Assembly (NCBI GenBank): GCA_963662335.2
Contig: CAXXVD010000005.1
Span: 544,001-608,000, forward strand
Direction of reading: 5' to 3'
From: Chloroflexota bacterium
GTDB lineage: Bacteria; Chloroflexota; UBA11872; VXOZ01
DNA length: 64,000 nucleotides
Part shown: positions 909 through 27,907 of the stretch, one piece after another
Layout of the letters: each line of letters starts with the position of its first letter
How positions within the stretch are numbered: the first letter of the stretch is position 1
Position numbers and translations under genes: made by a program
The notes under the pieces: generated by a model
What the model was told of the DNA's origin: nothing
Databases searched by the model: none
What the model saw: the letters and a program-made list of their open reading frames with translations, nothing else

Positions 909-1322
909 TCACGTTAGGCGCGCCTCCTGGCCCTCGGTCGGCCAGCGGCCGGGGACGGGGTAGGCCTCCTCCTCGCCAGGCCAGGGGGGCATGGTGACGA
1001 TGGTGAAGCGCAGGGGGCGCGCGCCGGTGGTGCGGAACTGGAAGTGCGCGCCCACGGGGATGGAGAGACTGACGCCCGGTGCCACGTCCACGATGCGCTC
1101 CTGGCCGTCCAGCCGCCGCCAGACCTGGCCCGCGCCCTCCAGACAGTACCAAACCTCCTCCACCGTGCGGTGCGCCACGGCCACCGAGACCGCGCCGGAC
1201 GGCAGCGTGCAGTGCACCATGCTGCCGCGCGCCGTCTGCGCCAGCAGCCGGATTTCCGACCCATCCGGCGCGAGGGTGTCGTAGTCTTGCGCAAGCTGCG
1301 CGTAGTCTAGGGCTTCGTCCAT
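909..1322 (-). CDS. Cupin domain protein
   Basis: APDGSEIRLL, HRTVEEVWY and IPVGAHFQFR cupin motifs; ATG at 1322 after GAAAGG. Confidence 0.85.
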   Translation of the reverse strand: MDEALDYAQLAQDYDTLAPDGSEIRLLAQTARGSMVHCTLPSGAVSVAVAHRTVEEVWYCLEGAGQVWRRLDGQERIVDVAPGVSLSIPVGAHFQFRTTGARPLRFTIVTMPPWPGEEEAYPVPGRWPTEGQEARLT

Positions 1323-1336
1323 CCGGCTGTATCCTT

Positions 1337-1390
1337 TCACCCCCATCCCCATCTTCCCCCGCGAAGGCAAGGGGTTTTGCAAGAGTTTCC
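1337..1390. repeat. Degenerate REP-like palindrome plus MITE right-end remnant
   Basis: CACCCCCATCCCCATCTTCCCCC...AAGGGGGTTTTGCAAGAGTTTCC resembles 37971-37999 joined to 38172-38198. Confidence 0.4.
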
Positions 1391-1483
1391 ATTGGCATCC
1401 ACGTTCGCTCCTACGCCACCGGCGCAGGGCGATCATACTCTATACTAGAGGCAGGCGGCACACTTCTCTCCCAGGAGCAGCGC

Positions 1484-3541
1484 ATGACGGCCAGCGACCC
1501 GGAACACAGCGAGACGCTTGCACTAGACTTCGACGACGGCAGCGGGTTGCGGGTGGCGCGGGCGCGGTTCGCGGGTGAAGAGAAGTTTGCGTGGTCGTTG
1601 TTCGACGGCTACGACCGCGTGCGCATACTCACCTACTCGGCCGGCGTGGGCGCGCTCGTGCGGCTGTTGGAGCAGCACGAGTTCAGCGACTTCGAGTGCG
1701 TCTTTGGCTGCGAGAGCACCCTGCGCACCCTGAAGGACATCCTGGCGTTCCAGCAGGTAGCCGTCGGCGACACCCGCGCCGCCATCAAGGGGCTCTCCGA
1801 CGAGCGCCACGCCTTCATCCTCAGCCGCGTGCGGGCGGGACAGGCGCGGTTTCGCGTGCTGCGCCAGCAGATTGCCCACGCCAAGCTCTACCTGCTGGAA
1901 AACACGCAAACCGGCGGCACGCGGGCCATCATCGGCTCCGCCAACCTCTCCGAAACGGCCTTTGGCGGACGCCAGTCCGAGACGTTGGTCTGCTTCGACG
2001 ACGACGAAGCCGCCTGGGGCCACTACCTGGGCATGTACGAAGCCATCCGCGACCGGGCGTCCGACGAGATTCCGCTGCCGCCGGAGCGCATCGAGACAGC
2101 CGGGATCGAACTCCAGGAAGCGCCGGTGCTCGCGCCCAACGACCTTGCAACCCTGGTGATTGACAACACCGAGACCGAACCGCCGTCCGGCAACGGCCTC
2201 ACCCTCAACGTGCCGGCGCAAATCGAGCGCATCGAGAAGATGAAAGCCGCCCTGCCGCCGGTGGTGGCCAATCTGATTCCCCCGCCGCGCAACGGCCGGC
2301 AGCAGATCACGCCCGACGTCCGGCGGCGGATCATCAAAGAGTCCAGCCGCATCCGCTCGGTGCAGTCCGAGGAGGAGGCCGACCACCGGCAGCTATCCAT
2401 CGACCGGGACGCGCAGACCGTCACCCTGAATGGCGCGCCGTTCTCGCTCGCAGCCAATCTCACCGCCGCCAAGAGCGACGCGGACTTGCTGGCCGGCTTC
2501 TTCCGCAACTACGAGGGCACGTTCGAAGGCGGCCTGGGCGTGGCGCGGCTCCAGCGGGACTATTTCATCCTCTGGTCGTGGCTCTATTTCGCGCCGTTCA
2601 TGTGCGACCTGCGCACGCTGGCTGGGCACCAGGGCGACATCTTCCGCTTCCCCTCGTTCGCCATCGTCTACGGCAAGCCCTCCTGCGGCAAATCGAGCCT
2701 GATTGACACCCTGATGACCTCCATGTTCGGCAAGGCGTATACCATTGACAAGCGCGAGTTCACCAAGGCCCGCTTGCGCGACGTCCAGCACGCCTACCAG
2801 CGCTTTCCCGCCGTGTTCGACGACATTGGCAGAACCGCCATCCGCAACCACGGCGAGGACGTGATCAAGGACGAAAACCCGCCGCTGGTGGCCGAATACC
2901 CCTGTTTCGTGCTCTCCATGAACCAGGAACTCAAGGCCTTCAGCGACCAGATTGTCAAGCGCAGCCTGATGATCTACACCACTACCGCGTTGCCGTCCTA
3001 CAAGGAGAGCCTGCGCCACGACCTGCACCTGAAGATACAGCAGGTGCGCCGCGGCCTTTCCACGCACCTCTACCGCGAATACCTGCGGCGCACGCTGGCG
3101 GAACTGGCGGAAAACCCCAAACCCGATGACTGGCTGGCGTGCTCGTCCACCATCCTGGCCGGCCTGATCGGCGACCTGCTGGAGCAAGACCCGCCGCCCT
3201 GGTGCGCGCCGGTCACCTGGGACGACTACGCCGGCAAGCGCCACGAGCGCGTCAAGTCGCAACTGGAACACCTGCTGCGCCCGGCCACCCGCATGAAACG
3301 GGAAGGCGACCTGCCCACCGGCTGGCTCCTGGAAGACGATACGGTCATCGTCATCGAACAAACCGACACCTTCGGCCGCCGCGAGTTCGCTTGGGAAAAC
3401 GTCCCCTCAACCCTCATCGACGACAACGCCAGCGTCGGCGGACGCACGGTGCTAAACCGGCGGGAATTGGAGGAATTTTTAGGGGCGAAACTAAGCGGTC
3501 GGGGAAATAGCCTGCTCAATAGGCTCTTGGGCAAAATGTGA
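1484..3541 (+). CDS. PLD-family (HKD-type) nuclease fused to a P-loop NTPase; candidate defence protein
   Basis: HAKLYLL...IIGSANLS PLD motif; Walker A GKPSCGKS; Walker B AVFDD; ATG at 1484 after AGGAG. Confidence 0.75.
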   Translation: MTASDPEHSETLALDFDDGSGLRVARARFAGEEKFAWSLFDGYDRVRILTYSAGVGALVRLLEQHEFSDFECVFGCESTLRTLKDILAFQQVAVGDTRAAIKGLSDERHAFILSRVRAGQARFRVLRQQIAHAKLYLLENTQTGGTRAIIGSANLSETAFGGRQSETLVCFDDDEAAWGHYLGMYEAIRDRASDEIPLPPERIETAGIELQEAPVLAPNDLATLVIDNTETEPPSGNGLTLNVPAQIERIEKMKAALPPVVANLIPPPRNGRQQITPDVRRRIIKESSRIRSVQSEEEADHRQLSIDRDAQTVTLNGAPFSLAANLTAAKSDADLLAGFFRNYEGTFEGGLGVARLQRDYFILWSWLYFAPFMCDLRTLAGHQGDIFRFPSFAIVYGKPSCGKSSLIDTLMTSMFGKAYTIDKREFTKARLRDVQHAYQRFPAVFDDIGRTAIRNHGEDVIKDENPPLVAEYPCFVLSMNQELKAFSDQIVKRSLMIYTTTALPSYKESLRHDLHLKIQQVRRGLSTHLYREYLRRTLAELAENPKPDDWLACSSTILAGLIGDLLEQDPPPWCAPVTWDDYAGKRHERVKSQLEHLLRPATRMKREGDLPTGWLLEDDTVIVIEQTDTFGRREFAWENVPSTLIDDNASVGGRTVLNRRELEEFLGAKLSGRGNSLLNRLLGKM

Positions 3542-3586: not shown

Positions 3587-6500
3587 CTATGCGACTTCCG
3601 GATGTATTTCTCCGTTCTCGGTCGAGAGTTCCGCCTGCCGCAGGACGAGTTGCGTCGCGTCTTCCGCAAGGTCTGGCGGATACCCGTACTTGGCAAGAAG
3701 CCGACGGACGCTGCGCCGCAGATCCGCCCGTACAGATTCTCGCTCAGTCCAGTCGAGTCTCGGCATCCTCTTGATCATCTCTGTGAGTTTCCTGGCCATG
3801 AGCCGGAGAGTGTCGTTCTTCATGACCTCTCTAGCCGATTCATTATCCGCGAGGGCGTCGTAGAAGGCAGATTCCTCAGTGCTCAAACCGAGTTCCTCAC
3901 CGCGTCGCTGGGCATCTCGCAATTCCTTCGCAAGACTGATGAGGTGAGTGATCATCTCGGCAGTTGTAATCGCTTTGCTTGAATAGCGCTGCATGGCGTC
4001 TTCAAGCGCCTTGCGAAAGTTCCGACTTTGCACGATGTTCGTGCGCTCGGTATTGCGTATCTGGTCGTTTAACAGTTTTCGCAGCGTCTCCAGAGCCAAG
4101 TTTTTCTGCTCGAGTGAGGCTACCCGACTGAGGAATTCGTCGCCGAGTATATCCAAGCGGGCTTCGTCTAGCCCTGCGACTGCGAATAGATCGATTACCT
4201 TGTCCGCTTCAACCGCGCCGCCGATAACCTGGCGCACGGCGTTATTGATGTCACGCTGTCGGCCGTTTGAGACGCCACTATCGGCGTCGTCTGCCAATCG
4301 CTTGCGTATCATAGCCACAATACGTTGAAAGAACGCAAGGTGCGGGGCGATTTGTTCAGTCTCCGGACGGGGAACCGCAAGCGCAAACGCTTCCGAAAGT
4401 TCCTTGACAAGGGCCCGCAGCCGCTTCCAACCATCGTCCTGGCCGAATACATGGTCAATCACCTGGAGATATTCGTTCAATACGCGCTCTGGCTCAACGC
4501 GCAGCGCTTGCTCATAGTCACAGCCGTGGAAGAACGCCACAAGCTTCTCGAAAGCCCCCAGCATTGCCGGCACTGCTTCATCTTGCACCTGCTTTACCGG
4601 TTCACCCATCCCACCGGCTTGAGTATAGATTGCGAGCGCGTCGGCTAGCTGGTCGGCCAAGCCAAGCAAGTCCACCACCAGGCCACCCGGCTTTTCGCCA
4701 TAAACCCGGTTAACGCGGGCAATTGCTTGCATCAGGTTGTGGGTTGCCAGGGGCTTGTCCAAGTACATGGTGTGGGCCGGCGGGCAATCGAAGCCTGTCA
4801 ACCACATGTCGCAGACGATCACCAAGCGCAGATCGTCCTCGGGGTCCTTGAAGCGCTCGGCAATGCGCTTGCGCTCAGCCTTGATTCGCACGTGACTGAG
4901 CAATGGCTCCTCGTCGTCGTTGGCGCCCGTAACGACCACCTTCATTGCCCCACGCCCGTCGACCGGGTCGTGCCATGCAGGGCGCAGCGCGCGAATAGCG
5001 TCATAGAGGCGCGCCGCGATGTCGCGGCTCATCGTCACGACCATCGCCTTACCCTCCATCACCGCGCGGCGCTCTTCCCAATGGTCGACGATGAACTCAG
5101 CAAGCCGCTCTATCCGCTCTTGAGCGCCGGCAAGAGTCACCAAGGGAACTCTAATGTGCTCTGAAGAGTCCGCTCCCAATGCGTCCGCTTCCGTTGCCTT
5201 CGCCAATTCCTCTTCCGCAACTTTCGCGCCCGCCTCGTCTATCGTCAGCTTGACGATGCGAGACTCGTAGTAGATTGGCTTCGTGGCGCCGTCTTCGACG
5301 GCCTGGCGCATGTCGTATACATCCGCGTACTCGCCAAACACGTGCCGCGTGTTTCTGTCGTGGCGCTCCAATGGCGTGCCGGTAAAGGCGGTAAAGGTGG
5401 CGTTTGGCAAGGCGTCGCGCATCCAGCGCGCGCCGCCCCGCACAAAGCCATACTGGCTGCGATGTCCTTCGTCTGCCATCACGACGATATTTGCGCGCTC
5501 GGAGATGACGCCGCGCCCCTCGGTGAACTTCTGGATAGTAGTGAAGATGACGCCTCCAATTGGGCGGTCAAGACGTTCTGCCAGGTCAGCGCGGCTCGAC
5601 GCCTGGACCGGATTGTCATGTAACAGGGCGCGGCCGGCGGCAAAGGTATCGAACAGTTGATCGTCTAGGTCATTGCGGTCGGTAATCATCACAATTGTCG
5701 GGTTCTCCATGCGCGGCTCGCGCATCAACGCGCCGGCCAGCATGAGCATGGTCAGCGACTTGCCCGCTCCTTGTGTATGCCAAATCACCCCGCCCCGACC
5801 GTCGCCCTCACCGGATGGCGGCTTCAGATGATCGAGTACGCTCGCACGCATCTTTCGCACCGCGCGAAACTGGTGGTATCCAGCAATCTTCTTGGCAATC
5901 TCGCCACGTTCGTCTTCCTCGAAAACAACGCAGGTTCGCAGGTAGTCGACTAGCGCGTGAGGCGCGAACAACCCGCGAATCAAGGCTTCCAGTGTCGGCG
6001 CGCCGCCATCTGCCGGCCGCCAGGGCATGAAGCGGCTGCGCTCGCTCGTTAGCGCGCCAACACGTGTCAAGAGGCCATCCGACACCACCAAGGCCAGATT
6101 GGGCACGAAAAGTTCGGGCGCTGTCTCCCTATAGTGGTCGAGTTGCTCAATAGCGGCATCCAGATTCGCTCCGGCGTCAGCCGGGTCTTTGAGTTCGAAC
6201 ACTCCAACCGGTAGCCCATTCAAGAAGACGGTTATGTCGGGTCGTATGCGCGTCCCCGCTGCACCGGTAACTGTAAGCTGCCGCACGGCCAGCAGATCGT
6301 TCGCCTCAGGATTATCGAAGTCGACAAGGCGAGCGCGCCTGACCTGTGTCTCATCACCATCGGCGCTCGGATACTCCACGTCGACACCATCGGTGTACAG
6401 GGCGTGGAACCAGCGGTTGTTCTGGATGAGCGATTGAGGAGGAGGCCGTGAGATGACGCGCACGACCTCTTCGATTTTGTCGTGTGGAAGAAGTGGATTA

Positions 6501-6667
6501 AGCCGGTGCAAAGCAGCCATGAGGCGGCCCTGCAGGATGCACTGCGAAGTATCCTCTCGCTCTCCCGCGTCATCTATATCTACGCCGCGCTTGGCCGGTA
6601 TGTCTTGGACGCCTAAGTACACGGAGGCGACATCTTCGACGAGTTTTTCGGTAGGAGAGGCAACCAT
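3587..6667 (-). CDS. hsdR: Type I restriction enzyme, R subunit
   Basis: RPD...ELK nuclease motif, WHTQGAGKS, DEGHRSQYG, FTGTP, DMWLTGFD, QAIARVNR. Confidence 0.95.
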   Translation of the reverse strand: MVASPTEKLVEDVASVYLGVQDIPAKRGVDIDDAGEREDTSQCILQGRLMAALHRLNPLLPHDKIEEVVRVISRPPPQSLIQNNRWFHALYTDGVDVEYPSADGDETQVRRARLVDFDNPEANDLLAVRQLTVTGAAGTRIRPDITVFLNGLPVGVFELKDPADAGANLDAAIEQLDHYRETAPELFVPNLALVVSDGLLTRVGALTSERSRFMPWRPADGGAPTLEALIRGLFAPHALVDYLRTCVVFEEDERGEIAKKIAGYHQFRAVRKMRASVLDHLKPPSGEGDGRGGVIWHTQGAGKSLTMLMLAGALMREPRMENPTIVMITDRNDLDDQLFDTFAAGRALLHDNPVQASSRADLAERLDRPIGGVIFTTIQKFTEGRGVISERANIVVMADEGHRSQYGFVRGGARWMRDALPNATFTAFTGTPLERHDRNTRHVFGEYADVYDMRQAVEDGATKPIYYESRIVKLTIDEAGAKVAEEELAKATEADALGADSSEHIRVPLVTLAGAQERIERLAEFIVDHWEERRAVMEGKAMVVTMSRDIAARLYDAIRALRPAWHDPVDGRGAMKVVVTGANDDEEPLLSHVRIKAERKRIAERFKDPEDDLRLVIVCDMWLTGFDCPPAHTMYLDKPLATHNLMQAIARVNRVYGEKPGGLVVDLLGLADQLADALAIYTQAGGMGEPVKQVQDEAVPAMLGAFEKLVAFFHGCDYEQALRVEPERVLNEYLQVIDHVFGQDDGWKRLRALVKELSEAFALAVPRPETEQIAPHLAFFQRIVAMIRKRLADDADSGVSNGRQRDINNAVRQVIGGAVEADKVIDLFAVAGLDEARLDILGDEFLSRVASLEQKNLALETLRKLLNDQIRNTERTNIVQSRNFRKALEDAMQRYSSKAITTAEMITHLISLAKELRDAQRRGEELGLSTEESAFYDALADNESAREVMKNDTLRLMARKLTEMIKRMPRLDWTERESVRADLRRSVRRLLAKYGYPPDLAEDATQLVLRQAELSTENGEIHPEVA

Positions 6668-7389
6668 CAGTCGTCCTCATCCTCACGCCCTGGATCCTGC
6701 AAAGCGAGTACTTCGTCGTCACGCTCAGCGATGAACTCGTTCAGCGCCAGCTTGTACGCCTCTAGGTCTACGCGAAACAGCACTAGGCTTGGCGGCAGTA
6801 CCAATTCGCCGATCTGTATCAACTCATGGTCGCCATCAAATGCCTCATTGAAGTCTGAGTGGTCATCGTAGTGGACACGTTCTCCTGGAGTCCGACTGCT
6901 CGCGTCACGATGGGTGCGGTAGAGGAACGCAGCGACTGTATCCGCCGCTTGTGCGGCAAGCGTTGCTTGCCGCACATCCAGCCGGGCGGCAAAGGCGTCG
7001 CGTCCGTGGGCTGCCATGCCATACCTGTTGCGGAGTTCGCACAGGCCCTGAATTGTCTGAAGCATCCCACGAATTGTCTTCTCAATGGATCGCCTTGCCA
7101 TTGCTGGTTCCGGATGGTTGTAGGGCAATAGGTTTAGGTGGTTTGTCGTTTCCCTAAGCAGCCTTGGCGCGTCCCAATTCGGCTCGACTACTTCGCCGAG
7201 GTCAGCGAGCACAGTCTTGCAAACAGATTCGACTAAGGTCTTTGAAAGATCAAAAGCGAAGTCGGGGACACTCTCCAACGCCCTTTCTATCGCGTCAATC
7301 TGCTGCTCAATGGGTTCAGCACTTGGGCCGTCCAAAATTGCGGAACGAGCGCCGACCATTTGGAAACGGTCTGTGGATGATTCAGCCAT
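6667..7389 (-). CDS. Abortive infection family protein (Abi_C / AbiJ C-terminal-like)
   Basis: SKTLVESVCKTVL and GLCELRNRYGMAAHGRD motifs; overlaps the hsdS stop and hsdR start. Confidence 0.75.
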   Translation of the reverse strand: MAESSTDRFQMVGARSAILDGPSAEPIEQQIDAIERALESVPDFAFDLSKTLVESVCKTVLADLGEVVEPNWDAPRLLRETTNHLNLLPYNHPEPAMARRSIEKTIRGMLQTIQGLCELRNRYGMAAHGRDAFAARLDVRQATLAAQAADTVAAFLYRTHRDASSRTPGERVHYDDHSDFNEAFDGDHELIQIGELVLPPSLVLFRVDLEAYKLALNEFIAERDDEVLALQDPGREDEDD

Positions 7390-8701
7390 CAGCAACCTCC
7401 ACGCGAACCTGACCATTCAGCAGTGGCGGGAGAAGGTAGTCGCGCACTTTGACCAAACTCTCTGTTTCTCTAATGCAAGCTGCGAGCAGTTCGAATAGCG
7501 GATCTACCGACTGACTGTAGGCAACAACAATATCGCCAGATGGCACAGTGATTGGAATCGTTCGGAAATTCCTCTTGCTAATCTCAGGGAATGCGGTTCC
7601 ACTCGCCCGGGATTCTATAGTCTCGATCCTACTGTGGGCCCAGTTCAGAACGAAAGTAGGTGGCAGCGGGCCATCACAGATCATCGCAATAAACCCCTGG
7701 TTGACCGCTGTTGGCACGCCTGATATCGCCAAATAGCCTACCGGGGCCCGTGAAGACATTAGCACAGTACCAACAGGAAGCAGTCCAGAGCTAATTTGAT
7801 CTATCCCTGCGTCCGTGATGTACCGCTCCGTATCAAATAGCAACGGATGCGAGAGACGTGACAGATCCCTAGGCGTTGCCCAGCAATGTTCTCCTCCTTC
7901 CCAAAAGTCCGGGTTCTTCGTGCTCGGTGTACCGCCACCCTTTATCGTGACCACATCGCCGATATCCGCCACTTCCCAACCCATTGGAACGGGACCGCTG
8001 TCGGAATCGACAACGGTGTCAGGGAGAGCGTCGAAGACATGCTGTGGCATGGAGGGGAAAGAACCAGCGCCGGCGGCTTTGGCTTTCACTGGCGTGAAGT
8101 CCACGAACCACGCCCGAAAGATCGCCCGCGCCAACCGCTCCAGCAGCTCTGCTGTCAGACGGTTTTGCTCGATCTTTTCATCAAGTGCGCCTAGAACACC
8201 AGCGATAGCATGTTGCTTCTCGAGCGAAGGGAGAATTGCCCTAAAATCGCAAATGCGGCTGGGTGAAGTGTGTCGTACGGTTGAGCCTGAAGCCGTAGCC
8301 AGCACGTGATGCCGATAGTCGTCCCCCCTTAGTAGATAGTATAGATAGTGTCGATCCAACGGAGCATCGGGATGAATCTGAACCAGTCCGATCCTTTGAT
8401 TGTGCAAATAGCGCCGGTCAGTCGAATCGGGTATTAATGCAGGATAGCCAAGTGTATCTCCACCTCTGCTAAGGTCGGTCATGGTTACTACAAGGTCACC
8501 AGCTTGAAGGACGTAACCATCTGGGATCGGGCCCGCATAATACTTCCTTCTTGCATCTTGAAATCCACCTCCAATTGCAAAATTGGCGGGCGTAAGCAAT
8601 ACGTCGGTTCCAACCACATCCGTGAAGTAAGCACTCTTGAACGCAAAGCCATGTTTCACGCTAATGTAATCGCCAAGTTTGGATGGTAACTTGCTATTCA
8701 T
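7382..8701 (-). CDS. hsdS: Type I restriction enzyme, specificity subunit
   Basis: Two TRDs (HGFAFKS; GGGTPSTK...SSRAPVGY...NQGF), PSLEKQHAIA...LDEKIE spacer, RDYLLPPLLNG end. Confidence 0.93.
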   Translation of the reverse strand: MNSKLPSKLGDYISVKHGFAFKSAYFTDVVGTDVLLTPANFAIGGGFQDARRKYYAGPIPDGYVLQAGDLVVTMTDLSRGGDTLGYPALIPDSTDRRYLHNQRIGLVQIHPDAPLDRHYLYYLLRGDDYRHHVLATASGSTVRHTSPSRICDFRAILPSLEKQHAIAGVLGALDEKIEQNRLTAELLERLARAIFRAWFVDFTPVKAKAAGAGSFPSMPQHVFDALPDTVVDSDSGPVPMGWEVADIGDVVTIKGGGTPSTKNPDFWEGGEHCWATPRDLSRLSHPLLFDTERYITDAGIDQISSGLLPVGTVLMSSRAPVGYLAISGVPTAVNQGFIAMICDGPLPPTFVLNWAHSRIETIESRASGTAFPEISKRNFRTIPITVPSGDIVVAYSQSVDPLFELLAACIRETESLVKVRDYLLPPLLNGQVRVEVADG

Positions 8702-10376
8702 CAGTTTGTATTCCAGCCAGTTGCTGTCGAATCACACCTGTCAAGCGTTCCCCTACCTCAAGAGAGACCTCCAATTCCGCCAGCAGCCGCGGGTATTTCT
8801 CAGTGAACGGCTCCCTATCATCTTCTTGCGCTTCCGTGCCAACGTAGCGACCGGGCGGTAATTCGAAGCCCTGCCGCTCAATGCCATCAATTGTCTCTGC
8901 TCTGCAAAAGCCAGGGACATCGCGGTAGGCCCACGGCCCATGCACGCACTCTTCCCACCACTCGGGCGCAGGCTCCCCACGCCACTGGCGGAAGGTGTAG
9001 ACGATGAGACCTATATCTGAATCGGGCCTAGGGTCGTTCATAGGGGTAGAGTGCAGCACTTCGCTGTCCTCGTCCCCAGAGAGCACACGTTGGGCGCGAG
9101 AAGTCATCGTGCCAAGCTTGCGGGCATCGATGAAGAGCGTCTCTCCGGTGCGGTCACGGTCGCAGGACTGCAGATTCCGTCCAGTCTTGTCGCGAGTTAG
9201 GAACCAGAGGCAAGCGGAAATACCGGTCGTGAGAAAGAGTTGCGGCGGCAGCGCCACAATGGCATCCACCAAATCAGCCTCGACGATACGCTGGCGAATG
9301 TCCCCCTCGCCGCCAGTGCTTGAGGATAGCGAACCGTTTGCCATGACAAAGCCGGCTACCCCGCCGCCCTGCCCGTTGGGTGGCGCGAGATGGTGGACAA
9401 AGTGCTGGATCCAAGCGAAGTTGGCGTTGCCCGCCGGCGGCGTGCCGTAGCGCCAACGCACGTCATCCTGAAGCAATTCGCCTGACCAGTCAGAGTCATT
9501 GAAGGGAGGGTTCGCCAGGATGTAGTCCGCCTTGAGATCTGGGTGCAAATTGCGCAAGAAGGAGTCGGCGGGCTGACCGCCAAGGTTGGCCTCAATGCCG
9601 CGAATTGCCAGGTTCATGTGCGCGAGGCGCCAGGTGGTCGGATTCGATTCCTGGCCGAAGATCGAGATATTGGTCTTGAGGCCGCCATGGGATTCGACGA
9701 AACGCTCGGACTGTACGAACATGCCGGCCGAGCCGCAACACGGGTCATATACCCGTCCCACAAACGGTTCGAGCATCTCCACCAGCAGGCGGACGATGCA
9801 ACTCGGTGTGAAGAATTCACCACCGCTCTTGCCCTCTTGCTGAGCGAACTTACCCAGAAAGTACTCGTAGACGCGACCGAGCATGTCGCGCGCCTTGGCC
9901 CGTTCACCCTTGAAGCCGATGGTGGCAATCAGGTCGATGAGTTCCTTCATCTTCACCGCCTCTATGCCCCTGCGGGCATAGTCTCGCGGTAGCTTTCCCT
10001 TCAGTTTCTTCGGGTTGTCGCCCTCCACCGCTAGGATGGCGTCATCAATGAGATTGGAAATGTCTGGGCGGACTGCTTGGTTCTGAAGGTTCGCCCAACG
10101 CGCCTTGCGCGGCACCCAGAAGACGTTTTCGGCGGTGTATTCGTCACGGTTCTCAAGTAGACGTTCTTGTTGTTCGCCGGTGATACCCTCTGCCTCCAAT
10201 TCACCTACCAATTCCTCACGACGCGCCTCGAAAGAGTCGGAGATGTACTTCAGAAAGAGAAGCCCAAGGACGACGTGCTTGTATTCGGCTGCGTCTACCT
10301 GCCCGCGCAGCTTGTCCGCAGCTTCCCAAAGCGTGGCAGCGAAAGCCAAGTCGGTGTTGGCTGTGTCCTTTGCCAT
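8694..10376 (-). CDS. hsdM: Type I R-M N6-adenine methyltransferase
   Basis: LWEAADKLRG, GEFFTP, YDPCCGSAGM, ANPPFN; ATG at 10376 after AGGAG. Confidence 0.95.
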   Translation of the reverse strand: MAKDTANTDLAFAATLWEAADKLRGQVDAAEYKHVVLGLLFLKYISDSFEARREELVGELEAEGITGEQQERLLENRDEYTAENVFWVPRKARWANLQNQAVRPDISNLIDDAILAVEGDNPKKLKGKLPRDYARRGIEAVKMKELIDLIATIGFKGERAKARDMLGRVYEYFLGKFAQQEGKSGGEFFTPSCIVRLLVEMLEPFVGRVYDPCCGSAGMFVQSERFVESHGGLKTNISIFGQESNPTTWRLAHMNLAIRGIEANLGGQPADSFLRNLHPDLKADYILANPPFNDSDWSGELLQDDVRWRYGTPPAGNANFAWIQHFVHHLAPPNGQGGGVAGFVMANGSLSSSTGGEGDIRQRIVEADLVDAIVALPPQLFLTTGISACLWFLTRDKTGRNLQSCDRDRTGETLFIDARKLGTMTSRAQRVLSGDEDSEVLHSTPMNDPRPDSDIGLIVYTFRQWRGEPAPEWWEECVHGPWAYRDVPGFCRAETIDGIERQGFELPPGRYVGTEAQEDDREPFTEKYPRLLAELEVSLEVGERLTGVIRQQLAGIQTDE

Positions 10377-10555
10377 CAAGGAACTCCTATCAATTGCCAT
10401 ATACCGAATAAACTGGCAGGTTTGTGAAAAGTTTCACTTTAGTCGACGCACGCAAGTGACACTGCGTTTCGAGCAGTCTCCGGGCCAAGGCCGCCTATCC
10501 AATTCCCTAGCAGAAGGATAGCGAACTACCACAAGCCCCGCAATGCAGTTACACC

Positions 10556-10629
10556 AAAATAGATCGGGCGCAAGGGGATTGCCGGTGAGACCGAACATGC
10601 GCATCAGGCTCTTGGGCGGTTTGCCGGTG
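10556..10629 (-). pseudogene. Fragment of an addiction-module antidote gene
   Basis: Encodes TGKPPKSLMRMFGLTGNPLAPDLF, matching TGKPPKSLMRMFGPSGNPHARNLF at 12124-12196. Confidence 0.75.
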
Positions 10630-10861
10630 GAGGCTGCGGACCTCATCGTGGCGCTCCGTGAGCGTAAGGTGAGGCCGGAGATTGCCGCAGAAGAAGCGAG
10701 GAGCTTGCCCAGGAAGCGGCGGCAACTCCTGGATAGCGCCAATGCCAGCGCCACCTTCGCCGGGGAGATGGCCGAGTTTCTCAAGGACAACGACTACGGA
10801 AATCTCTTGCGCTGCAAGAGCAGGCGCCCTGGGCAGATGGTTGAGGGGCAGATCACCTGGG

Positions 10862-11620
10862 CTAACCTTGTAGGGTACCGCTCGCGCGGGTTGGGTACCG
10901 AGCGTTCGGGCCTTCCAGGATGGCGCGCTGGGAATCGGTCAGGTCGGCATAGTCATCGGGGTCCAGGTAGCTGGCCGACCATGAGAGCGAGTGCGGGCTG
11001 TACTTGAAGAAGATCGTGCGGCGCTCGCCGGCGCCGTTCCAGGGAAGGGTGCCGTGGGTAAGGGCCTCGGTGAAGATGATGGCGGTGCCGGCGGGGCCGG
11101 TTACCCGCTCCACGAATGGGGCCGGTTCGTCCATCGCTTTCCACTCTTCGGGGAACTTGATGTTGCTCTTGTGCGAGCCTGGCACGCAGCCGAAGCCGCC
11201 GTCCATGGGGCCGACATCCTTCAGATTGTAGGCAACCACGGAAAGGCCGTTGTACATCATCCCGTCATGGAAGCGGTAGTAGAACGTGGGGTTGTAAGGG
11301 GCGCCGCCGCCGTGGAGGTTCGTCCCGATCGGGCCCTTGCCTGACCTGATGAGGTCGAGATAGACGTGGTCGAGCCTGAATTGATCGCCAAGCAGTTTGG
11401 CCAGGTAGGGTGTGATGGCCGGATTGTCGATGAGGTCGCGGTACTCCTTGGACCAGTCGAGCAGACGCTCAAACCTGTGGGTGCGCATGTCCGTTGTGCA
11501 CTCAGCGGCGATGTGCTCGTCGAGCACGCAGTTGAGCTGGGCGACCTGCTCAGGCGCCAGCGCTCCCGGCACAACCAAGTAGCCTTGCAGGTCGAACATG
11601 TAGCGCTCGTGGTCGTTCAT
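10862..11620 (-). CDS. Phytanoyl-CoA dioxygenase (PhyH) family protein
   Basis: FDLQGYLVV start, GGFGCVPGSHKS, FTEALTHGTLPW...RR. Confidence 0.88.
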   Translation of the reverse strand: MNDHERYMFDLQGYLVVPGALAPEQVAQLNCVLDEHIAAECTTDMRTHRFERLLDWSKEYRDLIDNPAITPYLAKLLGDQFRLDHVYLDLIRSGKGPIGTNLHGGGAPYNPTFYYRFHDGMMYNGLSVVAYNLKDVGPMDGGFGCVPGSHKSNIKFPEEWKAMDEPAPFVERVTGPAGTAIIFTEALTHGTLPWNGAGERRTIFFKYSPHSLSWSASYLDPDDYADLTDSQRAILEGPNARYPTRASGTLQG

Positions 11621-11744
11621 GAGTTGTCTCCCTGTTTCATGTTTTCTGGAATCAATGGCAACAGCCTCTATGCCATATTCCTTCCAAGCCCTGTTTCTCG
11701 CCTACGTCGACCGCCGCGATGGTCCACCACTCTTAGCTATGAAC

Positions 11745-11820
11745 TGGTGGCAAGAGAGGACTCGAACCTCCGGCCTCCACGATGTCAGCGTGGCGCTCTA
11801 ACCGGCTGAACTGCCCGTCT
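11745..11820 (-). pseudogene. Decayed tRNA-Val(GAC), copy A
   Basis: Aligns to 25447-25523; 5' acceptor strand AGACGGG instead of GGGCAAG, 1-nt deletion in the 3' acceptor strand, anticodon GAC and CCA retained. Confidence 0.9.
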
Positions 11821-11834
11821 TGCGTCTATGGCGG

Positions 11835-11864
11835 AGTATAGCAGGGGACTAACCGCCTGGGCAA
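11835..11864 (-). promoter_or_regulatory. Sigma70-type promoter of pseudo-tRNA copy A
   Basis: TTGCCC-N18-TATACT with extended -10 TG, 14 nt before tRNA position 1. Confidence 0.6.
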
Positions 11865-12060
11865 TTGGGCTACCTGCGCAAGAACGCAGCATCCGGCAGC
11901 GCGGAGATGGCATGTCGCGCCGCTGGCTCGCGCGGGTACACGTACGTTGTGATGACCGCATTGCCCGAGTGACAAATGCGATCGCCCTTGGCAATCGAGA
12001 ATGGCGTGAGCATGGGTTCATTTCGGTCCCGACGATGCGACTCAGCCGGAGACCGAGCGC

Positions 12061-12378
12061 TTACCGAACGGCGTTCACTTCGAGTTGGACGCCCTCGTGC
12101 TGCTGGATGCGGCTGATGACCTCGAACAGGTTGCGGGCGTGGGGATTGCCGGAGGGTCCGAACATGCGCATCAAACTCTTGGGCGGTTTGCCGGTGAGGG
12201 AACCAAGCTCCTCGAACCCGATGGTGGCGTTGATGTAGTCACGCAGGACGATCTTGCCCGTATCGACGTCCCCGGCAAGCAGGCACGCGACACCTTCCTC
12301 GAGTAGCCCTTCGCGAAATGCCGGGTCGCGCGCGGCGCGGGTCTGCACGGTCTCCTTGAAGTCACGGGTGAGCGGCAT
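12061..12378 (-). CDS. Addiction module antidote protein (HTH antitoxin)
   Basis: MPLTRDFKETV...LRDYINATIGF...KSLMRMFGPSGNP...NLF; directly downstream of the toxin. Confidence 0.85.
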   Translation of the reverse strand: MPLTRDFKETVQTRAARDPAFREGLLEEGVACLLAGDVDTGKIVLRDYINATIGFEELGSLTGKPPKSLMRMFGPSGNPHARNLFEVISRIQQHEGVQLEVNAVR

Positions 12379-12381
12379 CTT

Positions 12382-12711
12382 TCACGCCTCCTGTTGCTTG
12401 CGGCGCGTGTACTCTCGCCAGAGCTCGCGGGCATTTGCGATGTCCCTCTGTTGGCGCACTTTCGTGCCACCGCCAAGAAGGACTACCAGAGTGTCTCCGT
12501 CCCTGCCGAAGTAGATTCTGTAGCCGGGGCCGACGTTTATGCGGCACTCCATCACTCCTCTCCCAACGCCTTTGACGTTGGACAGATTCCCAGCCTCCAT
12601 GCGGGCGAGGGCCGTCCGCACCCTGGCCGCCGCCCCGGCGTCGAGACCGTCAAACCAGCGACCGAATGGACTGCGTCCCCGCTTATCGACGTATTCTCTG
12701 ATCTCGATCAT
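12382..12711 (-). CDS. RelE/ParE-family addiction module killer protein
   Basis: GRSPFGRWF, GNLSNVKGVG, GPGYRIYF, LLGGGTK..QQRDI. Confidence 0.9.
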   Translation of the reverse strand: MIEIREYVDKRGRSPFGRWFDGLDAGAAARVRTALARMEAGNLSNVKGVGRGVMECRINVGPGYRIYFGRDGDTLVVLLGGGTKVRQQRDIANARELWREYTRRKQQEA

Positions 12712-12718
12712 GTAGATA

Positions 12719-12738
12719 TGGTAACTGATGTGTTACCA
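12719..12738. promoter_or_regulatory. Palindromic operator upstream of the TA operon
   Basis: TGGTAAC-N6-GTTACCA, 7 nt upstream of the toxin ATG. Confidence 0.6.
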
Positions 12739-12828
12739 CAATGCAATACCTAGCACAGGCGGCGAATGAAAGTCGGCTCCCAACGGAAGCCATGAGGGGT
12801 TATGCATGCAGTAACGTCAAGCCGGGAT

Positions 12829-12905
12829 GGGTGGGCAAGAGAGAACTCGAACCTCCGGCCTCCACCATGTCAACGTGGCGCTCTAACCGGCTGAACTGCC
12901 CGTCT
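12829..12905 (-). pseudogene. Decayed tRNA-Val(GAC), copy B
   Basis: Gapless match to 25447-25523; same AGACGGG-CA-GTTC 5' end as copy A; private changes in the anticodon stem and T-stem, and CCA changed to CCC. Confidence 0.9.
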
Positions 12906-12919
12906 TGCGTCTATGGCGG

Positions 12920-12948
12920 AGTATAGCAGGGGACTACCGCCTGGGCAA
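12920..12948 (-). promoter_or_regulatory. Sigma70-type promoter of pseudo-tRNA copy B
   Basis: TTGCCC-N17-TATACT with extended -10 TG, 14 nt before tRNA position 1. Confidence 0.65.
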
Positions 12949-13088
12949 TTGGGCTACCTGCGCAGGAACGCAGAATCCGGCAGCGGGGATGGGGTGTAGC
13001 GGCGCAGGCTCGCGCAGGTGCATGTGCGTTGCGGCGACCGCATGTAACCCGTGAATTCAGCTACCGCGGTTCCATTAGTCGCTCTCTG

Positions 13089-13427
13089 CTAGTCGCTCTC
13101 TGCCGCGCCGCCGGATGGGGCCTTGACGCCGTGGAAATACCACCAGGCGAGGGCGAGTACGGCGAGCGCGGCTGCGGGAATCCACGCCCACGTCCATGAT
13201 TCCCACGCGATTATGCGCATCAAGAGCGTGGCGGCGGCGAGGGAGAGCAAGATGCTGGGCACGTGCTGCTTCTGCAGGGACGCGATGCTGCCGACGCCCA
13301 TCAAGATGCCGGGGATGATGAAGCTGCTCCACGGGTCATCCGCGAAGATGAAGCCCACGACCTGGGCAATGACCAAACCCAATACGAACATGGCAACATA
13401 CTTGCCAAGCGATTTGCCGGAAATCAC
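13089..13427 (-). CDS. Small hypothetical membrane protein (about 4 TM)
   Basis: GTG at 13427 after GAAGGGAGAG; four hydrophobic stretches. Confidence 0.65.
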   Translation of the reverse strand: MISGKSLGKYVAMFVLGLVIAQVVGFIFADDPWSSFIIPGILMGVGSIASLQKQHVPSILLSLAAATLLMRIIAWESWTWAWIPAAALAVLALAWWYFHGVKAPSGGAAESD

Positions 13428-13518
13428 GAAAGTCTCTCCCTTCAGTGCGCGCGAATCTTCCGCCGTCCAGCATACCCCATCCGCCTGCGCGGGGCAGCGC
13501 CCGTCGCGCGGCCTGGGG

Positions 13519-23961
<10,443 letters not shown>

Positions 23962-24073
23962 TAGGCTTTCCCCATGCGCCGCGCAAGCGGCGTTGGCTGC
24001 GGGGCAACCGCGCCGCCGCGCAAGCGGCTCCGGTAGATGCTTTAGACCACGGTACAGCCCGCGTGGCCGTAGG

Positions 24074-24349
24074 TTAGCGTTTCTCGGTCAGACGGCCGGA
24101 GAGATACTTATGGATAACGCTGGAGAGCAGTGTCTGGTAGGGTATGCCCTCTTCCCTGGCGCGGGAGTGGGCGAGGTTGAAATCGCGCTCGGTCACGCGC
24201 AGGTTGACGCGCTTGGTCTTGTTGAAGGTATGGCGGGCCGCCAGACGGGCCGTCTCGGCCTCGTGTTCGGCGTCAGGCACGGCGCGCAACTCACCCAGCT
24301 CGAATCGCTCCAGAATGTCGCGCTCTTCCGCGCTCATTTCGTCGTTCAC
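24074..24349 (-). CDS. RHH/CopG-type antitoxin (BrnA-like)
   Basis: KTKRVNLRV...AREEGIPYQTLLSSVIHKY; GTG start overlaps the toxin TGA. Confidence 0.85.
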   Translation of the reverse strand: MNDEMSAEERDILERFELGELRAVPDAEHEAETARLAARHTFNKTKRVNLRVTERDFNLAHSRAREEGIPYQTLLSSVIHKYLSGRLTEKR

Positions 24350-24630
24350 GGCAGACTCCTCCGCTAGTCTCTCGTCTGCTTCCGGCTGGGAATGATCGTC
24401 TTCAGAAAGCGCGTGCCGTCGGGCTGAGTTACGAATGGCACGAGATGAAGGTGCCGGTTTACATCCACCACGTAGATCCTCTGCCCCGGGTAACGCTACT
24501 GGTTGGGGTGCTCCAGCACGTCTACAACGCCGACCTGCTCGATGGCGAAGACAACCCGCTCGAACGAGATTCCCCGCTGCTCTCTGAGGCGCCGGTTCTT
24601 ATCTGTGCTCTAGTCGAAGCTACTGCTCAT
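24346..24630 (-). pseudogene. BrnT-like toxin gene interrupted by three in-frame TAG codons
   Basis: Hand translation: MSSSFD*STDKNRRLREQRGISFERVVFAIEQVGVVDVLEHPNQ*RYPGQRIYVV...LVPFV...FLKTIIPSRKQTRD*RRSLP-TGA; absent from the ORF track. Confidence 0.85.
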
Positions 24631-24711
24631 GTGTCAATTATCATACGATGTAAGTACTTTGGCAACAGAGTGCCACCTATTGATAGCGTACCGGCGCCCC
24701 CGCTGTGCGCC

Positions 24712-24748
24712 TTGACGCGAATGCCGGCTTAGTCATACAATTAGCTAA
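24712..24748 (+). promoter_or_regulatory. Promoter/operator of the phd-vapC pair
   Basis: TTGACG-N18-TACAAT overlapping the TTAGCTAA palindrome. Confidence 0.5.
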
Positions 24749-24770
24749 CCCCATACCTAAGGAGTCTCCC

Positions 24771-25007
24771 ATGGCCATCGTAAACGTCCACGAAGCCAAG
24801 ACCCACTTGTCGCGCCTGCTCGCGCGGGTCGAGGAAGGCGAGGAGATCGTCATCGCCCGCAACGGCACACCGGTGGCGCGCCTGGTGCGCTGCAAGAAGC
24901 GCGGCAAGCGGCGGCCGGGTTCCATGGCCGGAGTCTTTACCGTCCCCGATAGCTTCTTTGACCCACTGCCCGAGGAGGAGTTGGCCGCGTGGGAGGGGGA
25001 CGGCTAG
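24771..25007 (+). CDS. Phd/YefM family antitoxin
   Basis: VNVHEAKTHLSRLL...GEEIVIARNGTPVARLV; AAGGAG RBS. Confidence 0.92.
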   Translation: MAIVNVHEAKTHLSRLLARVEEGEEIVIARNGTPVARLVRCKKRGKRRPGSMAGVFTVPDSFFDPLPEEELAAWEGDG

Positions 25008-25010
25008 CAA

Positions 25011-25397
25011 ATGCGGCTCCTTCTGGACACCCATGCGTTTCTCTGGTGGGTGACCAATGACGCGAAGTTGTCGCGGGTAGCGCGGCAGTCAATAGCGGAT
25101 GACGAGAACGACGTGCTGATAAGCGCGGGTTCGGCCTGGGAAATTGTGATCAAGCATCGCAAGGGCAAACTGCCGGAAGCGGAACCCCTCGTCCGCGACA
25201 TTTCCGGTACCATAGCCGATCAAGGCTTCGAGGAACTGCCGATCACCGTCGCTGACGCCGCGCGGGCCGGCGCGCTGCCCGGCCGCCACCGCGACCCATT
25301 CGACCGCATGCTCATCGCCCAGGCGCTGACGCGCGACCTCACCCTCATCTCGATCGAACCCCTTTTCGACCGCTACGGCGTGCGCCGCCTCTGGTAG
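25011..25397 (+). CDS. vapC: VapC family PIN-domain toxin
   Basis: LLLDTHAFLWW, SAWEI, HRDPFDRMLIAQA. Confidence 0.92.
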   Translation: MRLLLDTHAFLWWVTNDAKLSRVARQSIADDENDVLISAGSAWEIVIKHRKGKLPEAEPLVRDISGTIADQGFEELPITVADAARAGALPGRHRDPFDRMLIAQALTRDLTLISIEPLFDRYGVRRLW

Positions 25398-25446
25398 ACC
25401 CGTCCTGTGCTTACGCCGAAATGAGGGGTCGCGAACTGATCCGGTC

Positions 25447-25523
25447 TGGTGGGCAAGAGAGGACTCGAACCTCCGGCCTCCACGATGTCAACGTGGCGCT
25501 CTAACCGGCTGAGCTACTTGCCC
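25447..25523 (-). tRNA. tRNA-Val(GAC)
   Basis: GGGCAAG TA GCTC AGCCGGTTA GAGC G CCACG TTGACAT CGTGG AGGCC GGAGG TTCGAGT CCTCT CTTGCCC ACCA: complete cloverleaf with encoded CCA. Confidence 0.97.
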
Positions 25524-25537
25524 TATCGCTATTGCGG

Positions 25538-25566
25538 AGTATAGCATGGGAATCGACCTTGAGCAA
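25538..25566 (-). promoter_or_regulatory. tRNA-Val promoter
   Basis: TTGCTC-N17-TATACT with extended -10 TG and CCGC discriminator. Confidence 0.75.
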
Positions 25567-25619
25567 TCGTGAGAAGCGGCGTTTTGCATTACCGGAAAGC
25601 GCTGAGCGGGACTGCCTGC

Positions 25620-27810: not shown

Positions 27811-27887
27811 CTCCGTCATTCCGGCGCAAGCTGGAATCCATGGGCGCGTGGCAAAGATGGATTCCGGCTTGCGCCGGAATGACGGAG
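27811..27887. repeat. REP-like inverted pair, family C (CGTCATTCC...GGAATCC)
   Basis: CTCCGTCATTCCGGCGCAAGCTGGAATCCA...TGGATTCCGGCTTGCGCCGGAATGACGGAG; relatives near 29262, 33274, 37902, 56362, 60183. Confidence 0.8.
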
Positions 27888-27907
27888 TTACCGTTGCTAC
27901 TCTCTCA

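Follow-up and report, generated by a model that had tools for sequence, protein, structure and literature searches.

Background

What has built an array of genes that is punctuated by whole copies of a tRNA gene, with no recombinase gene detected among its open reading frames (ORFs)? The question is raised by a stretch of 64,000 nucleotides (nt) from a Chloroflexota bacterium (assembly GCA_963662335.2, contig CAXXVD010000005.1, positions 544,001 to 608,000), here called the window. The array in it is made up of an intact tRNA-Val(GAC) gene and of two further copies, decayed but comprising the whole gene and a promoter; the three together bound two segments. The first segment, of 12.6 kb, carries a Phd/PIN toxin-antitoxin pair, a broken BrnT-like pair, a 10.4-kb polyketide synthase (PKS) gene and a membrane ORF, and the second, of 1.08 kb, carries a RelE/ParE pair. 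tRNA genes are classic entry points of foreign DNA, and the usual account of such entry requires an integrase.

The locus is an additive flexible genomic island between tRNA-Val(GAC) and a conserved PLD-nuclease/helicase gene (PLD-helicase), and it is common to a Chloroflexota clade. Our favoured explanation, to which we give a probability of about 0.48, is that the island was built and reshuffled by homologous recombination anchored on a module of promoter and tRNA-Val. We prefer this to an integrase acting in trans.

The repeated module

The two whole-gene copies with promoters reported by the first-pass annotation are borne out by ARAGORN, Rfam, a repeat search and an alignment; they are called A and B here (Table 1). 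The repeat search returned a direct-repeat family of 103 nt with three copies, at 97% and 85% identity and with spacings of 1085 and 12618 nt. All three copies can be aligned from about -50, including the -35 box TTGCYC and the extended -10 box TGnTATACT (TGCTATACT), down to the 3' end. A promoter scan scored both pseudo-copies as promoter-like (TTGCCC and TATACT, 17/18 nt apart, with TG upstream). In alignment the intact tRNA-Val is identical or near-identical to the functional copies of relatives. An nhmmer profile made from 26 copies matched the promoter and intact tRNA at 25574-25447, and in the whole window at E <= 1 it found no module copies beyond the known three. The repeated unit is therefore described here as a module of ~125 nt, made up of the tRNA promoter (from about -47) and the whole tRNA gene. 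Its near-identity across species would allow it to serve as a homology anchor.

Compared with the real gene, A and B have six changes in common, at positions 1, 3, 5, 6, 8 and 11. All are transitions within the first 11 nt, as had been noticed earlier, and the probability that six random changes over 76 nt all fall there is P = 9e-6. Private changes are found in B at positions 40, 62 and 77, for a total of nine differences from the real gene, and in A at position 33 together with a 1-nt deletion. The 3' flank of A, gttcatagctaag, is the same flank that precedes phyH in relatives.

Upstream of A and B the repeat goes on, with 94% identity over 54 nt followed by 79% over 61 nt, into a region called arm 1. 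The first-pass annotation had proposed that the arm should be found elsewhere next to tRNA-Val copies with variable cargo. It recurs upstream of tRNA copies in two relatives, L001 (copy 3) and L008 (copy 2), with different neighbours, and cargo does vary among relatives. Over the four copies of the arm the conservation is ~95% in the proximal ~100 nt and ~80% in the distal part. The upstream end of the homology varies (about -150, about -195 and about -240), arm A being homologous to arm B up to ~11971 and to L001 copy 3 up to 12014. Arm A is contiguous with an antitoxin gene, as in L008. The upstream neighbour is this antitoxin gene for window A and L008, the membrane ORF for window B and an ORF of 144 amino acids (aa) for L001, and downstream the four copies have four different neighbours.

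The 5' acceptor strand of these tRNA copies forms a nested series of decay, from GGGCAAG in the working gene through GGACAAG (L008) and GGACTGG (L001) to AGACGGG (window A and B). The remaining tRNA is near-intact. The arm and the first 11 nt thus travel together, and the earlier reading of the copies as hybrid junctions fits all four.

The arms resemble native tRNA upstream regions. The idea that arm 1 is the 3' end of a SOUL gene was rejected (best blastx E values 0.46-0.93). A blastn search with 11746-13053 matched 36 plasmid records, where all eight matches listed fall within the RelE/ParE pair, and one phage record, at a tRNA-Val; none of the matches listed covers arm 1.

Related genomes

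Relatives were collected by one contig scan with an exact 39-nt R/Y pattern that fits the 5' halves of both the real gene and the pseudo-copies; diverged module copies outside the 10-kb flanks are missed by such an exact-match scan. It yielded 18 loci in 16 genomes, 15 of them titled as Chloroflexota/Chloroflexi metagenome-assembled genomes and one, L005, as Proteobacteria. Each relative locus represents a different species in that genome collection. L017 denotes OZ244145 and L006 denotes OY760183.1. The copy spacing of the window is matched by none of the 18 loci, so its own genome is seemingly outside the sample.

Within 10 kb, nine of the 16 relatives have 2-4 tRNA-Val(GAC)-like copies, which are all direct repeats and have differing cargo around them. 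The position of the island between tRNA-Val and the PLD-helicase is conserved and the segments vary. Similar arrays are present in records whose titles give them as complete chromosome assemblies, for instance OZ244145.1, OZ242272.1 and OZ244803.1. Immediately downstream of a tRNA-Val copy, 11 loci have a phyH block that is 90-93% identical to that of the window over 10630-11730, as have L008 and L010 over 10715-11730; judged from the aligned sequences, the phyH side is the ancestral flank of the array. At the distal end, the PLD-helicase has 78-80% nucleotide identity in L002, L003, L008, L011, L016, L017 and L018. Upstream of the real tRNA lie genes for ordinary metabolic enzymes, and L006 is the one relative with this flank, at 86% identity.

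Each cassette had been thought to be led by a toxin-antitoxin module, and this does not hold for the relatives. Their segments carry a DUF1538-DUF1538-P-II-CBS operon, a SOUL haem-binding protein, PhyH, an RelE/ParE pair of the window type, an 831-aa ATPase-like gene, helicase-nuclease genes that match models of defence systems, or BrxD-like ATPases. Much of this cargo is cellular (the DUF1538/P-II/CBS operon, SOUL and PhyH), which we count in favour of homologous recombination. In two distant chromosomal contexts the DUF1538 segment, 84% identical, has a tRNA copy on one side and a decayed copy on the other, and this comparison argues that some arrays are old and inherited vertically.

One segment stands apart in composition. 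At L009 12930-15849, a 2.9-kb segment with a single AAA-ATPase-like gene of 831 aa and no PADLOC match has a G+C content of 46.5%, against 58% for the whole L009 locus and 61% and 58% for the neighbouring segments. Both its edges are near-full tRNA-Val copies, the distal one without a promoter.

Two further observations concern the tRNA surroundings (Table 1). A tRNA-Val(TAC)-tRNA-Phe(GAA) pair lies ~8-9 kb upstream of tRNA-Val(GAC) in five relatives and not in the window. In the distant genomes L004 and L015 a decayed tRNA-Val copy is flanked by genes for leucine-rich-repeat proteins with internally repetitive DNA.

Search for recombinases

Domain searches were carried out on 103 window ORFs (27 + 28 + 48), including the BrnT-like ORF with its stops read as X. 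Of 79 extra window ORFs of >= 110 aa, 46 were scanned, and the other 33 overlap the PLD-helicase, the restriction-modification (R-M) genes or the metabolic genes at 40-48 kb. From the relatives 228 ORFs were scanned, namely 133 of 169 and 94 of 147 greedy ORFs, one L008 ORF being present twice, and two further locus ORFs; those left aside lie a long way from the arrays or are homologous to previously assigned genes.

The 103 window ORFs yielded no Phage_integrase or other recombinase domain, and the 228 ORFs from the 16 related genomes, all within 10 kb of the arrays, no tyrosine or serine recombinase. The array without a recombinase, as first described, thus extends to the relatives. In the same flanks of <= 10 kb there were no genes of an integrative and conjugative element (ICE), no relaxase and no integrase. 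Mobile-element genes in the relatives' loci are insertion sequence (IS) transposases, in L017 and L009 only.

Breakpoints and exchange among relatives

A 4.6-kb stretch comprising the 3' end of the PLD-helicase, purC, a HAD gene, the 144-aa ORF, phyH and tRNA-Val (L018 ~5500-10086) is 96-100% identical in 250-nt windows among L003, L011, L016, L017 and L018, where the flanks are 66-95% identical. The part in L017 runs from purC to the tRNA only. Near-identity of this kind across five species-level genomes points to recent exchange of ordinary genes between species.

On the tRNA side the breakpoint lies at about +1 to -6 in L018, within the promoter-tRNA module, and at exactly -47 between L003 and L016, beyond which the upstream DNA is unrelated. 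L011 has a converted patch in the module from about -9 to +45. Since these breakpoints differ in position within the module, general homologous recombination fits them better than a fixed site-specific crossover.

A single recent event, in OZ244145, lent itself to reconstruction. On the phyH side this genome has 99% identity to L003, and it has gained its second tRNA copy by import of ~900 nt of diverged upstream DNA, the tRNA copy and cargo. At its edge the import meets a tandem pair of IS copies, which lie 218 nt upstream of the resident tRNA, and there was no crossover inside the tRNA. These two copies (L017 14867-17269) are 97% identical and carry a DDE_Tnp_1 transposase. In the same genome, the place of 1.1 kb is taken by a SOUL segment together with a tRNA copy and a helicase-nuclease gene (L017 11425-11970 compared with L003 6371-7357). 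The purC gene (SAICAR synthetase) is full-length in L002 and L003, and L011, L016 and L018 have ORFs of the same size; OZ244145 alone has a truncated version. We had considered the truncated purC as a sign that random chromosomal fragments are captured, and dropped this because the truncation is confined to OZ244145.

The SOUL segment differs in presence within two well-supported sister pairs, L008 and L018, and L002 and L016. The indel spans from -45/-48 to ~330 nt upstream of the decayed copy. Its limits do not fall on the repeats, so it represents the replacement of an allele and not excision at repeats; loss of SOUL by clean recombination between the flanking copies was rejected because the indel boundaries do not match the copies. 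In the decayed copies that precede SOUL, the promoter and the first ~12 nt are preserved, and five of the eight have no recognisable tRNA beyond this.

Proposed mechanism

In our model, RecA-type homologous recombination would exchange DNA with relatives, and one of the breakpoints would fall in the module. A segment would be gained when a module-bearing molecule recombines with the resident copy, either by single-crossover (Campbell-type) insertion, for which a circular intermediate is envisaged, or by unequal crossover. Every addition would leave one extra whole tRNA copy, and since one working copy suffices, the others would be free to decay. The window copies A and B may go back to a single copy of the arm-1 lineage that had decayed beforehand, with the 5' 11 nt and the arm inherited together and the remainder of both copies renewed by recombination or conversion with the working tRNA.

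Alternative explanations

Mobilisation in trans, as the first-pass annotation had it, would make the segments non-autonomous cassettes with hybrid att ends. A tyrosine or serine recombinase specific for tRNA-Val and encoded elsewhere would re-insert their circles and stack them in tandem, probably with a crossover near nt 11/12 (D-arm). We consider this somewhat unlikely, and it is the competitor that we take most seriously. It would account for the confinement of the six shared changes to nt 1-11 with nt 12-76 near-intact, for the nested 5' decay that accompanies arm 1, and for an arm 1 that adjoins three upstream and four downstream partners, all different; the last can also be explained by deletions around one inherited copy. 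A precedent exists in the tandem tycheposon arrays and remnants separated by partial tRNAs, as far as the consulted part of the source describes them (bioRxiv 10.1101/2020.12.28.424599).

Several observations that agree with such a recombinase weigh at the same time against homologous recombination. The pattern of A and B, with six shared changes in nt 1-11 and none in nt 12-76, suggests the outcome expected from a fixed crossover near nt 11/12, and the SOUL-upstream copies that keep the promoter and ~12 nt could point to the same boundary. The low-G+C, single-gene segment of L009 between tRNA copies looks, from its composition and edges, like a foreign element with an attachment site that mimics the tRNA; when the L009 tRNA copies were compared for crossover mapping, no lineage-specific markers were present in them. 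The negative result for integrases covers flanks of <= 10 kb and part of the greedy ORF sets only. Finally, the sole recent event reconstructed, in OZ244145, involved IS elements, which are absent from the other arrays.

What tips the balance towards homologous recombination is that nothing shows an integrase acting in trans or a mechanism like that of integrons, that no recombinase was seen in the window or within 10 kb in the 16 relatives, that the mapped breakpoints vary within the module, and that the duplication in OZ244145 took place without a crossover in the tRNA. An attachment site for an integrase needs neither a native promoter nor upstream homology of variable length. Moreover, the SOUL indel is not bounded by repeats, and some arrays, such as that with the DUF1538 segment, appear old and vertically inherited.

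The array could also be the wreck of integrase-bearing islands or prophages which entered the tRNA one after the other and lost their integrase modules, with no mobility left. The deletion scar at 10558-10784 and the broken BrnT-like ORF agree with this, toxin-antitoxin pairs resist deletion, and tandem integration at tRNA genes is common, as is known also from the consulted parts of two reports (bioRxiv 10.1101/2020.12.28.424599, PMC7771536). We nevertheless hold it to be quite improbable. Across 17 genomes, not one integrase remnant was seen next to the 11 or more distinct segments, and what is repeated is the entire gene with its promoter instead of a 3' fragment. Ordinary cellular genes make up much of the cargo, and the near-identical segments across species show that the locus is still exchanging DNA. 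An ancestral tandem cluster of tRNA-Val genes with their own promoters, spread apart by unrelated insertions and with its redundant copies decayed, would explain the common promoter block and orientation of all copies and the age of some arrangements. However, cargo begins a few nt from the tRNA 3' end (in L009 also from the 5' end), which fits insertion within the tRNA and not between copies; sister genomes differ in copy number and content, and a recent duplication is documented in OZ244145. This explanation we judge very unlikely. Repeats can generally cause misjoins in metagenome-assembled genomes, and no result supports an assembly artefact here: the three copies differ (85-97% identity) and have distinct flanks, and comparable arrays recur in records titled as complete chromosomes, which leaves an artefact hardly credible.

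Promoter retention and cargo orientation

The exact TATACT is kept in eight of nine decayed junction copies outside the SOUL-upstream class, and all eight SOUL-upstream remnants have the last T changed. Of 11 distinct partners downstream of a copy, nine have the orientation of that copy (P = 0.033, with no correction for relatedness). In the window, the RelE/ParE pair follows copy B and phyH follows copy A, each on the strand of its copy. From motif and orientation, the retained tRNA promoters probably drive the co-oriented downstream genes, i.e. the RelE/ParE pair (B) and phyH (A).

A bolder proposal, which we regard as unlikely, is that the promoter-tRNA-Val module is both the portable recombination site and the expression signal of the cassettes, in an integron-like platform for capture and shuffling. 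Any circle with one copy could then enter any other, either bringing a strong tRNA promoter along or landing behind one, with a dedicated recombinase encoded elsewhere (acting near nt 11/12, D-arm) or with none.

Features of the window

The gene content given by the first-pass annotation largely stands, with three corrections: the Phd/PIN pair belongs to the plus strand, stop codons break the BrnT-like ORF, which has no family match, and the toxin-antitoxin scar is a fusion. All features are collected in Table 1.

Table 1. Coordinates of features in the window and, where a locus number is given, in related genomes.
Feature	Position	Strand	Evidence or remark
Intact tRNA-Val(GAC), upstream end of array	25447-25523	minus	ARAGORN; Rfam 71.8 bits (25450-25523)
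Promoter block of intact tRNA, TTGCTC ... TGCTATACT, about -47 to -1	25524-25574	minus	alignment with pseudo-copies and relatives' promoters
Pseudo-tRNA-Val B	12829-12905	minus	Rfam 34.8 bits (12832-12901); no ARAGORN call
Pseudo-tRNA-Val A, adjoining phyH at ancestral position	11745-11820	minus	ARAGORN tRNA-Val(GAC) 11746-11820; Rfam 41.6 bits (11748-11815)
Arm B, ~150 nt upstream of pseudo-tRNA B	12906-13053	minus	alignments; promoter-like site 12948-12920
Arm A	11821-12060	minus	promoter-like site 11864-11835
PIN/VapC toxin	25011-25397	plus, convergent with tRNA	Pfam PF01850 57.2 bits
Phd antitoxin	24705-25007	plus, convergent with tRNA	Pfam PF02604 44.7 bits; TIGR01552
BrnT-like ORF, two in-frame TAG stops	24367-24630	minus	three-frame translation
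CopG/BrnA-like antitoxin ORF, weak	24074-24349	minus	PF12441 21.1 bits, below Pfam cut-off
Type I PKS, 3480 aa, main cargo of segment 1	13519-23961	minus	Pfam
112-aa ORF, possibly membrane protein, last gene of segment 1	13092-13427	minus	weak Tmemb_14 match, E = 0.0075
RelE/ParE-family toxin, segment 2	12382-12711	minus	TIGR02683 100.2 bits (cut-off 62.85); PF05973
Toxin partner ORF, segment 2	12061-12378	minus	3 nt downstream of toxin; no family match
Conserved backbone block with phyH (10862-11620)	10630-11730	minus	PF05721
Deletion scar: 144-aa ORF remnant (10629-10784) fused to 72-nt antitoxin-like fragment (10558-10629)	10558-10784	minus	
Type I R-M (HsdM, HsdS, HsdR) and Abi_C/AbiJ-like gene	3587-10400	minus	Pfam, PADLOC
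PLD-nuclease/helicase gene, conserved distal island anchor in relatives	1079-3541	plus	Pfam
tRNA-Val(TAC)-tRNA-Phe(GAA) pairs	L001 15802-15960; L002 18965-19125; L007 18817-18976; L009 770-928; L016 2233-2392		
Leucine-rich-repeat genes	L004 6332-7195, 2851-4659; L015 12669-13532, 15323-17143		

The name BrnT for the broken ORF is our assumption; no Pfam match was obtained at E <= 0.001 with the stops read as X. With the toxin-like ORF broken and the antitoxin match below the cut-off, segment 1 does not contain a BrnT/BrnA toxin-antitoxin system as the family is defined, and the pair is probably a dead toxin with a surviving open antitoxin-like ORF. The domains of the PKS are, according to Pfam, KS-AT-DH-methyltransferase-ER-KR-ACP followed by a second KS-AT, and the same Pfam scan detected neither a second carrier domain nor a thioesterase. 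Its G+C content is 70%, compared with 64% for the whole window. A homologue in L006, downstream of the tRNA-Val of that locus, has 64% protein identity in the first KS.

The RelE/ParE toxin and its partner are the sole cargo of segment 2 and agree with a type II toxin-antitoxin family; plasmid homologues of the pair are annotated as RelE/ParE toxin and transcriptional regulator. L008 has the same pair, then the arm and then a tRNA copy, at 87-89% identity to the window. In the deletion scar, the remnant of the 144-aa ORF has 77% identity over 52 aa to a conserved neighbour ORF (tblastn), and the 72-nt fragment has 83% identity to the window antitoxin gene (12125-12196) and 82% to the L008 antitoxin gene.

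The slot that separates the phyH block from the PLD-helicase is variable and is filled here by the type I R-M block, whose Abi_C/AbiJ-like gene (6667-7416; Pfam, PADLOC) is placed within the operon between hsdS and hsdR. Near the window edge, an ORF at 31-450 matches the C-terminal half of TcmP (three-Cys-motif partner) and the PADLOC candidate system PDC-M41A, which suggests more defence genes beyond the edge. A long near-perfect intergenic hairpin at 27811-27888, with spurious sub-threshold microRNA matches in Rfam, may be a terminator or a repeat element.

Comparison with known systems

The first-pass annotation regarded the array as a candidate for an undescribed system. Cassette arrays punctuated by tRNA repeats are already known, from what the consulted parts of two sources report: additive flexible genomic islands at tRNA genes in 'Ca. 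Actinomarinales' and other aquatic bacteria (PMC7771536), and arrays of tycheposons in Prochlorococcus islands (bioRxiv 10.1101/2020.12.28.424599). With additive flexible islands the locus shares a conserved position with varied content and tRNA direct repeats at the cassette ends. The sections of the paper used here describe the same position in relatives, small cassettes, tRNA direct repeats at their ends and cassette transfer between related taxa. For those islands, the repeat is described as a portion of the tRNA gene and recombination is taken to be site-directed (PMC7771536), whereas here the whole gene, the promoter and up to ~240 nt upstream are repeated and breakpoints vary. Tycheposons, as portrayed in the part of the preprint consulted, are likewise stacked at one tRNA, with tRNA copies between them, degenerate remnants deeper in the array, and defence and niche cargo. 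They differ in having their own tyrosine or serine recombinase, in leaving partial tRNAs and in the fragmented integrases of their remnants (bioRxiv 10.1101/2020.12.28.424599). None of these was found here, and no domains of the tycheposon recombinase or replication module were present in the arrays among the window and relatives' ORFs scanned.

The array is not an integron, as it has no intI and no attC. The resemblance lies in small gene units, mostly of one orientation, with a repeated site between them, and in the toxin-antitoxin cassettes of both. In contrast to integrons there is no intI, attI or hairpin-forming attC in the array (no dedicated attC model was run), and the site is a tRNA gene that gives each unit its own promoter instead of a single Pc. 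Cis-mobilizable elements (CIMEs) are flanked by att repeats, lack recombination genes and occur in tandem; they depend on a related ICE that inserts alongside and have short att sites. Segments 1 and 2 resemble them in being flanked by repeats and in having no recombination or transfer genes, but the loci examined (<= 10 kb) contain no ICE, relaxase or integrase. Islands and prophages that target tRNA genes have an integrase beside the tRNA, which is lacking here, and a distal direct repeat, which is present and spans the whole gene and promoter. In Streptomyces SLP1 and Haemophilus phage HP1 the attachment site covers most or all of the tRNA gene, so that two near-complete copies result. The near-complete tRNA copies are the likeness to such elements, and the difference is that their integrase is encoded next to the site.

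In a limited literature search we found no description of whole tRNA-plus-promoter repeats without integrases, which may yet be published. Across the clade, islands without an integrase close by are divided by tRNA copies that are complete and have promoters, and some stretches are near-identical across species-level genomes. If the module alone suffices as an anchor, genes could be gained at tRNA loci without integrases; this would help to explain the 'additive' islands of many uncultured lineages and the occurrence of PKS, toxin-antitoxin pairs and defence systems together at this locus. If a recombinase acting in trans exists instead, the locus would be a tRNA-based analogue of cassette capture. 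In either case, what is distinctive here against the systems compared is the repetition of a tRNA gene in full, together with its promoter and an upstream arm that varies, at 17 arrays or single sites near which no recombinase was found.

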